Numbered from the stretch's first letter, positions 17,088-37,352 are shown. The stretch: DNA of 64,000 bases from Escherichia coli (GCF_003334765.1 NZ_QOWT01000003.1), one strand, 5' to 3'. Program-made: numbers and translations. Notes: generated by a model not told the origin, from the letters alone.

Positions 17088-17200
17088 ATTTATCTTCGCC
17101 GTAATACTTCCCCATTTTGTTGTAAATAAAAAGCGTTTACGCAATGCAATCCTTTTGTAACAACCCAGGTAAAACACCTTATTTTCAAGTTGTTAAATAA

Positions 17201-18853
17201 GTGGTTATCTACGCTTTTAACAAACGATTGATGGAATATTTTATGAAAGGGAAATCTGCATTAACTCTTCTGCTCGCTGGTATATTTTCGTGCGGCACAT
17301 GCCAGGCGACAGGGGCAGAAGTGACGAGTGAATCTGTATTTAACATTCTTAATTCCACGGGGGCAGCAACAGATAAAAGTTATTTATCGTTAAATCCAGA
17401 TAAGTATCCTAATTATCGTCTTCTGATTCACTCAGCCAAATTACAAAATGAAATAAAGAGCCACTATACCAAAGACGAAATTCAAGGATTGCTAACATTA
17501 ACAGAAAACACACGAAAGTTAACGTTGACGGAGAAACCCTGGGGAACGTTTATTCTTGCTTCTACTTTCGAAGATGACAAAACAGCGGCAGAAACCCACT
17601 ATGATGCTGTCTGGTTGAGGGATAGTTTATGGGGCTATATGGCATTAGTATCAGATCAGGGAAATAGTGTAGCCGCAAAAAAGGTTCTGCTCACCCTGTG
17701 GGATTATATGTCTACGCCCGACCAGATTAAGCGGATGCAGGACGTCATTAGCAACCCAAAACGACTGGATGGAATTCCCGTGCAAATGAATGCTGTGCAT
17801 ATCCGATTTGACAGCAACTCCCCCGTGATGGCAGATGTGCAGGAAGAAGGCAAGCCGCAGCTGTGGAACCATAAACAAAATGATGCTTTAGGTCTTTACC
17901 TTGATCTCCTTATACAAGCAATCAACACTGGTACTATTAACGCTGAAGATTGGCAAAAAGGTGACCGATTAAAGTCGGTTGCGCTGCTGATTGCTTATCT
18001 GGATAAAGCCAATTTCTATGTTATGGAAGATTCCTGAGCATGGGAAGAAGATGCCCGATTAAACACATCTTCCGTTGCACTGGTGACCTCTGGACTGGAA
18101 CGTTTGTCAAACCTACTCTCGAAGAAAGACTCTGTTTTTGTCTCTGATTTACTACGCGAAGCTAAAGTCAATGAACTGGATGAAACTCTTTCAACAACGA
18201 GGTTGAACCACCTCATAGATAAAGGTTATGAAAGAATAACGTTACAGCTTGATTTAGGGGGAGAATCCCCAGGTTATCTGGAAAAAGATAAACATTACAG
18301 AGAAGCCGATGCGGCTTTACTTAATGTTATTTATCCTACAAATCTTTCAAAGATAAACACCAGAAGAAAAGAGCAAGTTCTAAAAATAGTTAAAAAACTA
18401 GCAGGTCCGTATGGTATAAAAAGATACGAGAAGGATAATTATCAGTCGGCAAATTTTTGGTTCAATGATATTAAAACCGATACCGATCAAAATTCGCATG
18501 CAAAAAGAGAAAAGAGCTTCATTCCATCAACAGAAGCAGAATGGTTTTTTGACTCATGGTATGCAAAATCAGCAGCAATTGTTTATAAAGAATCAAGAAA
18601 AGAAGAGTATTTGAATGACTCAGTACAATTTATGAATAGATCATTGGCCCAAATAACAGGCGAGAATATGATTGGTGCAAATGGCAGGAGCGTACCAGAA
18701 ATGGCACTTCCCGAAAGCTATAACTATATCCACAAGTCGGGAACTTTGCATGAAGCGCCAAGCCCTATCATTCCGCTAAATTGGTCGAAAGCTTCAATGA
18801 CTCTCATGTTGAAAGAGATGTCCAACCTTATCAATGATGAGGGAATTAAATAG
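17201..18853 (+). pseudogene. ygeQ: glycoside hydrolase family 15-like lipoprotein, interrupted by in-frame TGA (ygeQ-like)
   Basis: Two ORFs (17201..18037, 18083..18853) in the same frame separated by a single TGA at 18035..18037; GH15-like WEE...NTSS motif immediately after the stop; N-terminal signal/lipobox-like segment. Confidence 0.75.
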
Positions 18854-18984
18854 TTTTCATAATGAGTTACAGCACAACGTTGGGTATTGACTGAGCAAGA
18901 TGAACGACAAGGACAACGACATCAGCCTTATGAGGAGCAAGAAAATGAAAGCAAATTCGAAAACGATCAGAAGGATGAAAGTTA

Positions 18985-19932
18985 ATGTTCGGTCTGAGGA
19001 CAGTAAATCGAAACACTCATACGTTTGAAACCACTTTTCAAAATTGGAAAGAAAATGGCGAAGATGTTGCATTATTAATGCCCGAATTTAGTGCTAAATG
19101 GCTACCGATAGCAGAAGAGAGTGGCAGCTGGTCTGGATGGGTATTGCTTGGAGAAATATTTCCCTTAATTTCATCTGAGCTCGCTGGGATGGCTTTAATG
19201 CCAGAAACGGAAAGGTTAATAGGGGAATGCCTCAGTTTATCCAGTTCCCCGTTAAATCTAAAGCATCCTGAACTAAAATATAATCGTTTGCGCGTAGGTA
19301 AAGTATTTGATGGAGTATTGAGCCCTGCTCAACCACTAATAAGAATATGGACAGGGGAATTGAATCTTTGGTTAGATAAAGTCACAGTCTGCCAATACGG
19401 AAACGCTCCAGCGTTAGACAAAAAATCGTTATATTGCTCCATTCATTTTGTAATTGGATTTAGTAAAACATGTTACAGAAGTCTTGTTGATATTGAAGTT
19501 GGTGATGTTTTATTAATCTCAAATAATTTGGCTTATGCGGTTGTTTATAATACAAAAATTTGTGATTTAATTTATCCAGAGGAGTTAAAAATGGCTGATC
19601 ATTTTGAGTACGAGGAAGATTTTGAAACAGATGATTTTGATATCAAAAAAAACGAGAGTGAGATTTATGATGAAAATGACGATCAGATGATTAATAGTTT
19701 TGAAGACTTGCCTGTAAAAATTGAGTTTGTTCTTGGTAAGAAAATAATGAATCTATATGAAATAGACGAACTCTGTGCAAAAAGAATAATATCTCTGCTT
19801 TCTGAATCTGAGAAAAATATAGAAATACGTGTAAATGGCGCGCTAACTGGCTATGGCGAACTTGTTGAAGTGGATGATAAATTGGGCGTAGAGATTCATT
19901 CTTGGTTATCAGGGCATAATAATGTCAAATAG
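18985..19932 (+). CDS. epaO: T3SS cytoplasmic sorting platform/C-ring protein (SctQ; SpaO/YscQ family)
   Basis: 315 aa; C-terminal SpoA-like region (VKIEFVLGKK...EIRVNGALTGYGELVEVDDKLGVEI); acidic linker; immediately precedes the sctRSTU homologs. Confidence 0.8.
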   Translation: MFGLRTVNRNTHTFETTFQNWKENGEDVALLMPEFSAKWLPIAEESGSWSGWVLLGEIFPLISSELAGMALMPETERLIGECLSLSSSPLNLKHPELKYNRLRVGKVFDGVLSPAQPLIRIWTGELNLWLDKVTVCQYGNAPALDKKSLYCSIHFVIGFSKTCYRSLVDIEVGDVLLISNNLAYAVVYNTKICDLIYPEELKMADHFEYEEDFETDDFDIKKNESEIYDENDDQMINSFEDLPVKIEFVLGKKIMNLYEIDELCAKRIISLLSESEKNIEIRVNGALTGYGELVEVDDKLGVEIHSWLSGHNNVK

Positions 19933-35409: not shown

Positions 35410-35868
35410 GTTAAGAACCTCCCTATCCGTATATAATTGCATAATTTCATTGGTTATTGATGATGTCAATACACCATGATTTTGTAATTTTGCCGGGAAA
35501 AATTGCGATTAATCTGTATTTGCTATAATTCTGAGTAAGGCATTTAAAAATGCATTTCTCGTTATCAAATATGATTATGTTTCACTGATTTAATCTTGCA
35601 TGGTTGAGAGCGGTCCAGATAACTATCTCATGGTATAAGAATATCTATATCGCAAATTGTTTTTGAATGACCAGAAGATATCTTGCGAATCTAAGTTATG
35701 CATCTTAAATAGTCTTATTTAAGATGTTCAGATCTCTTTGTGTGTTTAACTAACTGATAATACTAGGATATGACGAGAGAAGTGATAGGGTGGAATAATA
35801 ACAAATGAATATTATGAAAAATGGAATGGTTCAAAATTGTAGCAATTTTGAACCATCCACAACTGATA

Positions 35869-37098
35869 TTAGCTAAAGAACATTACCGATACGCACAGGA
35901 TACCCACGATCAGCGTAATCAGATTTCCGATGGAACGCCAGGGTTTAAGCGCCGGGATGAGATACGTTGACAGCGTAGGCATGATGAAAAGTATCATGGC
36001 AATGAGCGGGCCGCTGATCGCGTAAATCATCGAAATCGCGTTCGGGTTAATGCAACAAACAATGAAGGTAATCAGCGATACCAACATAATTGATAGTGCG
36101 CGGTTAAATGCACGACTTTTCTTTACACCAACCTGCTGTAGTGTTGTTTTGACGACCTCTGTGGCACCTTCAATAACGCCAAAGTACGTACCCAGGAATG
36201 ATTTCGACATCGCAACTACTGCGACAATAATCCCGGAAATTGACAACCATGCTGGGGCGTTCGGCAGCATAGAAAGCGCCGATAAAATGGTGACCCCTTC
36301 TTCTTTAGCAGCTTCAATATACGAAGGTGGAATAGAAAGCAGGCAGCTAAAGACAAAGAACAGTACACTTATGCAGATGATGAGATAAGCGACTTTCATA
36401 ATTTTTTTGCATTTATCCATAGCGTGTTCGCCATATTTTTCACGTCTGTCTATGGCAAACGTAGAAATAATGGGCGTATGGCTAAAGGCGAAAACCATCA
36501 CGGGAATCGATATCCATATCTGGTGAAGGGTATTCTGATTGAACTCTACCTGGGTTGTTAATAGATCAGGTTGCCAACTACCGACAAGGTAAATGGAAAG
36601 AAATAAGAAATAGGCAATCAATGGGAATACCAAAAATCCCATTACCCGAATAGTGGCATGACGTCCCATCAGAAAAATGAGATTCAGAATTAATACAACA
36701 CCCAGACTCACCAACATACGGATGCGAAGATCAATAACCATATGCTTTGCCAGCTGTTCCGTAAGTGAGTTGGTAATTGCCACTGCATATATCAACACGA
36801 CGACAAAAAAGGCGATGAAGTACAGCGTGGTAATCAGATTACCAATCTTCTTGCCATAGTAGTGTGTTACCGCGCCCGTTATCCCTTCACCTGCTGATGT
36901 TTTTGATGAGAGGATGAACTGGCACAAGGCTTTATGTGGCCAATATGTTAAAGGCCAGGCGACCAGAGCAGTAATAAACAGGACCACAGCCCCTGCCGAA
37001 CCTAACTGAATAGGAAGGAAGAGCGTGCCTGCACCAACGGCTGTGCCGTAGAGCGCGAAACTCCACAGAGTTTCTTCTTTAGACCAAATATTAGACAT
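35869..37098 (-). CDS. yqeG: HAAAP-family amino acid transporter YqeG
   Basis: 409-aa polytopic membrane protein with SdaC/TdcC-like pattern. Confidence 0.85.
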   Translation of the reverse strand: MSNIWSKEETLWSFALYGTAVGAGTLFLPIQLGSAGAVVLFITALVAWPLTYWPHKALCQFILSSKTSAGEGITGAVTHYYGKKIGNLITTLYFIAFFVVVLIYAVAITNSLTEQLAKHMVIDLRIRMLVSLGVVLILNLIFLMGRHATIRVMGFLVFPLIAYFLFLSIYLVGSWQPDLLTTQVEFNQNTLHQIWISIPVMVFAFSHTPIISTFAIDRREKYGEHAMDKCKKIMKVAYLIICISVLFFVFSCLLSIPPSYIEAAKEEGVTILSALSMLPNAPAWLSISGIIVAVVAMSKSFLGTYFGVIEGATEVVKTTLQQVGVKKSRAFNRALSIMLVSLITFIVCCINPNAISMIYAISGPLIAMILFIMPTLSTYLIPALKPWRSIGNLITLIVGILCVSVMFFS

Positions 37099-37352
37099 TA
37101 TCTGAACGTATCATCTACAAATTAAACAAAATGGAGGGCAATTTACCATAAACCAGGTTAAGTATGGGAGATTAACGCCCTATCTACCCCTCTATTGGTG
37201 GGTTAGTGGTTGCAAACCTTACGTGCCAGTTATGTCTCTGACTGCTGCTCAGGCATATTTCCTTTGTGATAAAAATCACTTTTTTTAAACAATTAAGATA
37301 ACTGTAATTAACAATCATTTACTATTGCACTGTTAATTGGTGCGAGGTTGTG

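Follow-up and report, generated by a model that had tools for sequence, protein, structure and literature searches.

The element described here is a remnant of the second type III secretion system of E. coli (ETT2), which adjoins the tRNA gene glyU in a 64,000-nucleotide stretch of Escherichia coli DNA (GCF_003334765.1, NZ_QOWT01000003.1; hereafter the window). It is the published 8.74-kb-deletion isoform of ETT2, the commonest form, and as such is already known. Very likely, it is an island at an intermediate stage of decay that cannot secrete, whose remaining activity is transcriptional and whose intact apparatus genes are neutral leftovers. A degenerate ETT2 at glyU had been proposed from the sequence alone (the original prediction), and comparison with reference ETT2 loci bore this out, the window being collinear with them and 94-98% identical. 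The original prediction missed that this exact isoform has been published and is carried by about one in three E. coli genomes. Since 2004 the literature has covered ETT2, its mutational attrition, the 8.74-kb isoform and the notion of still-acting regulators.

When 17000-37200 was compared by megablast with 5426 complete E. coli genomes, full-length matches at about 100% identity were found in many chromosomes, and at least 80% of the query was covered in 3019 genomes. The RefSeq annotation of a 99.98% identical locus (NZ_OZ547038.1) carries the ETT2 gene set. NCBIfam scans of the open reading frames (ORFs) in the window identified SctQ, SctR, SctS, SctT, a split SctU, PrgH/SctD, SctF, SctI and SctJ, in agreement with the sctD/F/I/J and sctQ/R/S/T homologs predicted earlier, and also OrgA, OrgB, the LuxR-type YgeK, an IagB-like transglycosylase, the HilA-family YgeH, a SicA/LcrH-like chaperone, the CadC-like YqeI and the EcpR-like YqeH. 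SctR, SctS, SctT, SctF, SctI and SctJ exceeded the curated cut-off of their respective best-matching models. SctD passed the family-level PrgH model TIGR02554 (232 bits versus a cut-off of 189) and fell below that of the narrower NF011855 (279 versus 508). The genes for SctR/S/T, SctD, SctJ, SctF and SctI are free of lesions relative to strain MS 69-1. The site between glyU and yqeG, the low G+C content, and the collinearity with and high similarity to reference loci all identify the island as ETT2.

Alignment to the ETT2 locus of the O157:H7 strain Z1836 (L002) showed that window 17101-18866 corresponds to L002 3477-5237, and window 18858-32461 to L002 13965-27576. The window joins L002 position 5237 to about 13975, and the same layout was found against MS 69-1 (L004). 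A single deletion of about 8.74 kb has brought the end of GH15 up against the final 39 codons of eivJ. Its breakpoints lie within an imperfect 9-10-bp microhomology (CATAATGAG on the left, CACAATGAT on the right), and the junction bears the signature of illegitimate recombination or replication slippage. One illegitimate-recombination event between the short imperfect repeats would have removed everything from the ghoT/ortT-like gene through most of sctP. In O157, where the identities of the missing genes were confirmed by NCBIfam, the deleted block encodes a GhoT/OrtT-like peptide, EivF (InvF-like), SctC, the gatekeeper SctW, SctV, SctN, SctO, a small ORF and most of SctP. Ren et al. are said to have reported the 8.74-kb-deletion isoform in 2004. 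It is on record from Wang et al. 2016, as summarised in a review (PMC11068852). Separately, a 228-bp segment of O157 and MS 69-1 is gone from the ygeF-yqeK intergenic region at window 32453-32461. Bounded by a 9-bp repeat, TATCACCTT, this loss appears to be a second microhomology deletion, which took part of the divergent ygeF-yqeK intergenic region.

An injectisome requires a secretin, SctV, the ATPase complex and SctU. When the intact MS 69-1 proteins were used as tblastn queries, no match to SctC, SctW, SctV, SctN, SctO, EivF or the GhoT-like peptide was found in the 64-kb window, and no translocators, tip protein or effectors were found there. The predicted absence of the ATPase, SctV, secretin and translocon thus holds in the window, and the missing genes are the eiv block of the 8.74-kb deletion. 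SctR/S/T, the inner rings SctD/J, the needle SctF and the rod SctI are present, whereas the secretin SctC, the export gate SctV with the ATPase SctN, an intact SctU, and the translocators, tip and effectors are lacking. The candidate effector gene pkgA/GH15 is interrupted by a stop codon, and the window does not extend to the eip locus at selC. Because there is no secretin, SctV, ATPase or intact SctU, parts with an established requirement, we infer that the locus cannot secrete. The earlier statement that no injectisome could be built from this locus alone is accordingly supported by the missing SctC, SctV and SctN and the split SctU.

MS 69-1 served as the reference for scoring lesions, supplemented by O157 where this was informative. 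The frameshift predicted in sctU was confirmed: one C is lost at 22339, in codon 235, upstream of NPTH. The decay had been underestimated, however, and five more genes are broken. GH15/pkgA has a TGA stop at 18035-18037 (codon 265), which leaves 'ygeQ' and a 249-aa ORF; orgA has lost one C at 26453 (codon 17); ygeK has a TAA stop at 28006-28008 (codon 52); and ygeF is frameshifted near codon 131. The IagB-like transglycosylase gene has lost one T at 28569, so that the last approximately 20 residues are replaced and the product has 158 aa, not 167. The lytic transglycosylase and the class II chaperone of the original prediction were therefore both identified, but only the chaperone gene, ygeG, is intact. 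Similarly, among the regulators, put at no fewer than five, etrA, ygeH, yqeI and yqeH are intact and ygeK is a pseudogene. The gene named EtrA in O157 is ECs3720 (PMC3977695). Genes without lesions are sctQ, sctR, sctS, sctT, the invH-like gene, etrA, eprH, eprI, eprJ, eprK and orgB, as well as ygeI, ygeH, ygeG, yqeK, yqeJ, yqeI and yqeH, which leaves nine of the 11 remaining apparatus genes undamaged in the window.

Within the sorting platform, SctK (orgA) is frameshifted, SctL (orgB) is intact, and the SctQ ORF spans its profile although it is flagged by the NCBI Prokaryotic Genome Annotation Pipeline (PGAP). PGAP calls sctQ 'frameshifted' in every non-O157 locus seen, including the nearly intact one of MS 69-1. 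At 19019 the window carries an additional base relative to O157, and it is read from the ATG at 18985; O157, which lacks this base, uses a start farther upstream, and the N-terminus of its SctQ outscores that of the window by 18 bits on NF006018. The window allele is the same in frame as that of MS 69-1, with no indel between the two. We set the PGAP frameshift aside as a lesion, as the allele is common to MS 69-1 and the 315-aa ORF covers profile positions 3-303. PGAP bases the flag on a longer reference protein of the O157 type, and the call may be an artefact of annotation; sctQ, which is probably intact, was not counted as a lesion. In orgB, an A9 tract at 27183-27191 is in frame in the window and in the 99.98% identical locus; K-12 and five further lineages with the junction have A8 instead, which shifts the frame. 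O157 has kept A9, but carries a separate 1-bp insertion 16 bp upstream. The tract thus appears to be slippage-prone, and its slippage would switch orgB on and off.

A 701-bp junction probe was searched in the 5426 genomes. It was fully covered in 1899 of them (35%), and split or partial in about 1400 more. The deleted eiv segment was found in 1334 genomes, always in the chromosome and never on a plasmid, at a median of one place per genome and a maximum of two. At least 80% of this segment was present in 972 of the 1334 genomes, and others have a different, smaller deletion. The junction-bearing and eiv-bearing genomes add up to 3233, within the 3299 that hold this part of ETT2, which fits the expectation that the two states exclude each other. 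K-12-type genomes match window 15500-18379 at 100% identity, then carry IS2, and then match 26584-39500 with six mismatches (99.95% identity), and they have the GH15, ygeK, transglycosylase and ygeF lesions in common with the window. This alignment pattern and the common point lesions indicate that K-12 carries the same isoform with a second, IS2-linked deletion of window 18380-26583. Its remnant (ygeQ ... ygeK-ygeF, yqeK-yqeH) differs from the window by the IS2, by the orgB A8 frameshift and by the absence of the junction, sctQRSTU, the invH-like gene, etrA, eprHIJK and the 5' part of orgA.

The order of decay was examined in six junction-bearing loci, namely the window and five others (L009-L013). 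All five additional loci have the frameshifts in sctU and the transglycosylase gene and one of those in ygeF, and because these frameshifts occur in every junction-bearing locus sampled, they are taken to be old. Only the K-12-like lineage has the orgA frameshift and the GH15 stop, which were probably added there later. Four of the five additional loci, all except L010, carry the ygeK stop. L009 and L011-L013 have further stops or frameshifts of their own in sctQ, sctR, etrA, eprH, eprI, eprJ, eprK, orgA, orgB and yqeK, and compared with these lineages the window is better preserved, its sctQRST, eprHIJK, orgB and etrA genes being lesion-free. The genes ygeH, yqeI, yqeH, sctS, sctT, ygeI and yqeJ are intact in all six loci. 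Across these loci, 23 unique disruptive lesions were counted in 7.5 kb of apparatus genes versus none in the 2.8 kb of ygeH, yqeI and yqeH, a small comparative hint that these three regulator genes may be kept intact while the apparatus genes decay. Loss of the secretin, SctV and ATPase predates the split between phylogroups A and B1. The strain SCU-482 was dropped as a divergent reference; nearly every gene in it was flagged as frameshifted, probably owing to assembly error.

In the same six loci, the ratio of nonsynonymous to synonymous polymorphism (pN/pS) was 0.28 for the apparatus genes, 0.44 for the regulators, 0.37 for other island genes and 0.03 for the flanking core genes. The difference between the island (0.28-0.44) and the core flanks is significant (Fisher p about 1e-8), and constraint on the island appears clearly weaker than on core genes. 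Silent-site diversity is uneven, at 0.02 for the regulators, 0.054 for the core flanks and 0.07-0.2 for sctR/S/T (up to 0.2 for sctS). The silent diversity of sctR/S/T (19922-21626) relative to L009-L013, which attains 0.09-0.2, suggests that recombination may have shuffled ETT2 segments between lineages. We therefore rejected pN/pS as a measure of selection since the deletion: the uneven silent-site diversity shows recombination or older alleles, so the assumption that all the differences arose after the deletion fails, and the ratio was used only as evidence of weaker constraint than in the core.

As to function, the most likely picture is a silenced, decaying island that would be active only through its intact regulators. 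Under laboratory conditions H-NS probably keeps YgeH, EtrA, YqeI and YqeH silent; once expressed, they would act on genes elsewhere, including those for flagella, fimbriae and serum resistance. In the intact apparatus genes (sctQRST, eprHIJK, orgB) we most likely see neutral leftovers that have so far escaped being hit. This proposal draws on other strains. In strain 042, ygeH is silenced by H-NS and the ETT2 operons are activated by YgeH (PMC4210603), and in O157 the genes of the enterocyte-effacement locus (LEE) are repressed by EtrA and EivF (PMC3977695). In avian and septicaemic strains, flagella, adhesion and serum resistance change on deletion of yqeI, ygeK, yqeH or degenerate ETT2 loci (PMC7552227, PMC8614350, PMC11068852, PMC6030553).

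The limits of the island were set by comparison with the empty site of Nissle 1917 (phylogroup B2). There, the sequence after glyU matches window 17088-17151 and immediately continues with that of window 35695 and beyond, with the right edge at about 35688 if two mismatches are tolerated, so that the alignment resumes at about 35688-35695. The original prediction had placed the island at 17088-37100, directly 3' of the tRNA. The AT-rich block does adjoin glyU, a single tRNA-Gly(CCC) found there by ARAGORN and Rfam, but the island itself runs from 17152 to about 35690, and the spacer at 17088-17151 and yqeG are conserved core sequence. The yqeG gene adjoins the glyU region in Nissle 1917 at 97.7% identity and has a G+C content (GC) of 0.445, with 0.49 at third codon positions (GC3). 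The island measures 18.5 kb here and would have been about 27.3 kb before the deletion. Between about 17.1 and 36 kb, GC is 0.30-0.39, down from about 0.50, and it amounts to 0.347 in the island versus 0.508 in the rest of the window (GC3 0.31 versus 0.51). In 1-kb windows, every island window but one is lower in GC than all flank windows (Mann-Whitney p = 1e-9). The AT-richness noted by eye is thus real, and the composition does differ from the flanks; published ETT2 has a G+C content of about 37% versus about 51% for the chromosome (PMC3977695).

No second glyU 3' end was found in the 64-kb window (20-mer, up to three mismatches), the sole match being glyU itself, and blastn-short at the right border revealed no glyU direct repeat beyond chance, in line with the earlier inspection by eye. 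The two island edges have in common only GC(G)AATC (4-6 bp), and no integrase was present among the annotated or family-scanned island ORFs. The locus therefore lacks both the direct repeat and the tyrosine integrase of an integrase-mobilised, tRNA-linked genomic island. In E. coli strain M9 (L013, about 6246-18400), an unrelated element that encodes a tyrosine integrase along with phage capsid and baseplate proteins lies between glyU and the GH15 gene, and a similar glyU-GH15 insertion was seen in further megablast matches (H11-H14, H112, H113). Because an unrelated integrase-bearing element has inserted there in some strains, glyU is still an active integration site. About 77-80 bp just 3' of glyU are missing at window 17097-17100 and in K-12, and are kept in O157, Nissle and several other junction-bearing strains. 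In the longer form this segment lies between two copies of a CCATTTTTGTTGTA-like motif, and the difference is suggestive of a small deletion mediated by the repeats. An exact inverted match of 14 nt, TAACAACCCAGGTA, was noted between 17158-17171, just inside the left edge, and 36547-36560, in the yqeG coding sequence (E = 0.001, small search space); it was judged to be due to chance and rejected as a border signal, with one arm lying within conserved yqeG coding sequence. Rfam found no RNA family in the island, only the adjoining tRNA.

Several points weigh against a relic that acts only through its regulators. The lesion contrast rests on six loci that are phylogenetically non-independent and in which recombination is evident; pN/pS does not separate the regulators (0.44) from the apparatus (0.28), the regulators having too few substitutions; a regulatory role in this strain would have to be carried over from other strains; the absence of the missing genes holds for the 64-kb window, and the eip/selC locus and any LEE lie beyond it; and with nine of 11 apparatus genes lesion-free, selection rather than luck is possible. 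SctR/S/T, the EprH/K rings, EprI/J, SctQ and OrgB might form a partial, non-secreting envelope complex selected for surface effects (serum resistance, vesicles, flagellar expression). The same fraction of apparatus genes is lesion-free in L010, sctS and sctT are intact in all six junction-bearing loci, and pN/pS is low (0.07-0.22) for sctR, sctS, sctT and eprH-K. In addition, eprHIJK mutants of enterohaemorrhagic and avian pathogenic E. coli are serum sensitive according to a review (PMC11068852), and deletion of the truncated ETT2 of an O78 strain reduced virulence (PMC6030553). However, sister junction-bearing lineages carry frameshifts or stops in sctQ, sctR, eprH, eprI, eprJ, eprK, orgA and orgB, K-12 has lost the whole apparatus block, and SctU and OrgA are broken in the window itself. 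The low pN/pS moreover comes with very high silent diversity (up to 0.2 in sctS versus 0.054 in the core), which points to old or recombined alleles and not to selection since the deletion. We consider such a complex improbable, and there is only a slim probability that in the K-12-like lineage sctQRST, eprHIJK and orgB are lesion-free not by chance but through selection for an envelope complex that does not secrete yet has a physiological role.

A working injectisome would need its missing parts in trans, from the LEE, from flagellar FlhA/FliI or from a second eiv copy, together with the eip translocator locus at selC. We know of no established cross-system complementation of secretin, SctV and ATPase together. 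Complementation by ETT1/LEE has been raised as a possibility in a review (PMC3977695). This reading is hardly credible in view of the eiv counts given above (a chromosomal segment, found at a median of one place and at two places at most, with 1334 + 1899 = 3233 genomes within 3299, as expected under mutual exclusion), the frameshifts in sctU and orgA in cis, and the near-identity of the window to K-12-like phylogroup A backgrounds, the best-matching genomes being mostly of commensal size. A different question is whether the B2 empty site is itself a secondary, precise loss, so that the borders given here mark a deletion scar rather than the original insertion site and ETT2 is older than the diversification of E. 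coli. The edges, with their 4-6 bp in common and neither an att-like repeat nor an integrase, are compatible with this, as are reports of ETT2 at glyU in E. albertii (PMC4700944, PMC11068852), whereas the literature, to the extent that Ren et al. 2004 is cited in PMC7058095, reads B2 as never having carried ETT2; we regard secondary loss as possible but rather doubtful. The reading preferred here, a silenced and decaying 8.74-kb-deletion isoform, is set beside known systems below.

In site (glyU-yqeG), gene order, missing eiv block and deletion size, the locus is the same as the 8.74-kb-deletion isoform, and nothing essential differs. The nearly intact ETT2 of MS 69-1 (the intact form being that of enteroaggregative E. 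coli 042 and of sequence type 69) is collinear with it, with 94.4% DNA identity over 13.6 kb and the same sctQ allele. Unlike the window, intact-form ETT2 retains the ghoT/ortT-like gene, eivF, sctC, sctW, sctV, sctN and sctO, and has unbroken sctU, orgA, ygeK, transglycosylase, ygeF and GH15 genes. The O157:H7 ETT2 (Sakai ECs3703-3737; strain Z1836) is the same island with 97.1% identity over 13.6 kb and is likewise degenerate, but it retains the eiv block and has lesions of its own: a stop in sctT, frameshifts in eprH, ygeH and GH15, a split orgB and a different ygeK stop. Models named after proteins from pathogenicity island 1 in Salmonella (SPI-1; Inv/Spa/Prg/Org), or labelled SpaO/PrgH-type, were matched for SpaO-type SctQ, PrgH, PrgJ, OrgA, OrgB, IagB, SicA, InvH and HilA. 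SPI-1 is complete and functional, with translocators and effectors in cis, whereas the window is without InvG, InvA, InvC, InvE, InvF and SipB/C/D. Pfam revealed no family for ygeF, yqeK or yqeJ, and the coordinates of all features are listed in the table.

Table. Features of the ETT2 island and its borders, in window coordinates (aa, amino acids; HTH, helix-turn-helix; TPR, tetratricopeptide repeat).
Feature	Position	Strand	Evidence or remark
tRNA-Gly(CCC), glyU	17014-17087	+	ARAGORN; Rfam tRNA 71.6 bits; landmark adjoining the island
ETT2 island	17152 to ~35690	no strand	delimited by B2 (Nissle 1917) empty site; GC 0.347
GH15 glucoamylase-like (pkgA) pseudogene	17243-18853	+	98% identity to 536-aa MS 69-1 protein, 1 internal stop (tblastn); PGAP
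Deletion junction	18858-18866	no strand	alignment to O157 L002 5238-13974 and MS 69-1 L004
eivJ/sctP 3' remnant, needle-length determinant	18866-18985	+	final 39 codons; tblastn; PGAP 'SpaN/EivJ ... missing N-terminus'
epaO/sctQ, 315-aa ORF	18985-19932	+	NF006018 487 bits, profile 3-303 of 303
epaP/sctR, intact	19922-20587	+	NF009437 382 bits; tblastn
epaQ/sctS, intact	20597-20857	+	NF011861 140 bits; tblastn
epaR/sctT, intact	20859-21626	+	TIGR01401 328 bits; tblastn
epaS/sctU pseudogene, 243-aa + 130-aa ORFs	21635-22755	+	NF006017 profile 1-235 and 245-366 on separate ORFs
InvH-like small 'invasion protein', 97 aa, intact	22817-23110	-	weak InvH match, E = 1.4e-7
etrA, LuxR/GerE-type HTH regulator, 166 aa, intact	23112-23612	-	Pfam GerE E = 4.7e-5
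eprH/sctD inner-membrane ring protein, intact	23869-25050	+	TIGR02554 232 bits; tblastn
eprI/sctF needle subunit, intact	25064-25303	+	NF011854 120 bits; 100% identical to MS 69-1 protein
eprJ/sctI inner rod, intact	25323-25655	+	NF038054 90.7 bits; tblastn
eprK/sctJ inner-membrane ring lipoprotein, intact	25652-26386	+	NF011852 309 bits; tblastn
orgA/sctK pseudogene	26402-26982	+	tblastn in two frames; TIGR02555 on downstream ORF
orgB/sctL, intact	26924-27631	+	NF011850 E = 1.4e-14; tblastn
ygeK, LuxR-type response regulator, pseudogene	27853-28485	+	NCBIfam scan, tblastn
IagB-like lytic transglycosylase, frameshifted	28504-29006	-	NF011856 E = 6e-31
ygeI, small ORF, function not known, intact	29089-29307	-	annotation, tblastn
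ygeH, HilA-family regulator, 458 aa, intact	29475-30851	-	NF008870 1085 bits; protein accession identical to that of K-12
ygeG, SicA/LcrH-like TPR chaperone, intact	31186-31677	-	NF011859 119 bits (cut-off 184); TIGR02552 73.5 (cut-off 104.8), both below cut-off
ygeF pseudogene, no known family	31902-32391	-	annotation, tblastn; Pfam nothing
yqeK, intact, no known family	32585-33010	+	tblastn; Pfam nothing
yqeJ, intact, no known family	33159-33641	-	tblastn; Pfam nothing
yqeI, winged-helix (CadC/ToxR-like) regulator, intact	33634-34443	-	annotation, family scan, tblastn
yqeH, LuxR/EcpR-like HTH regulator, intact	34777-35409	-	NF047921 E = 2e-20; 100% identical to MS 69-1 protein
yqeG, serine/threonine-type permease	35869-37098	-	flanking core gene, outside the island

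Elsewhere in the window, a 28-nt hairpin-forming sequence, TGGCCGGATGGTATTACCCACCCGGCCT, occurs downstream of yqeB at 3465-3672 in two exact copies 180 bp apart. Both copies flank a palindromic element resembling a repetitive extragenic palindrome or bacterial interspersed mosaic element (REP/BIME), and the insert of about 150 bp is not found in MS 69-1. This arrangement looks like a REP/BIME insertion with the target terminator duplicated. The tandem OmrA/OmrB small RNA genes between galR and aas (46560-46641 and 46756-46843) are ordinary core-genome content.

Beyond its correct annotation, the locus matters little. The present analysis makes modest additions to what is known of ETT2, namely island limits at the base level, the microhomology at the junction, a junction frequency of 35%, evidence that the K-12 remnant derives from this isoform, an order of lesions and a hint of regulator retention. 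A relic machinery whose regulators are still in use fits an idea that is already in the literature.

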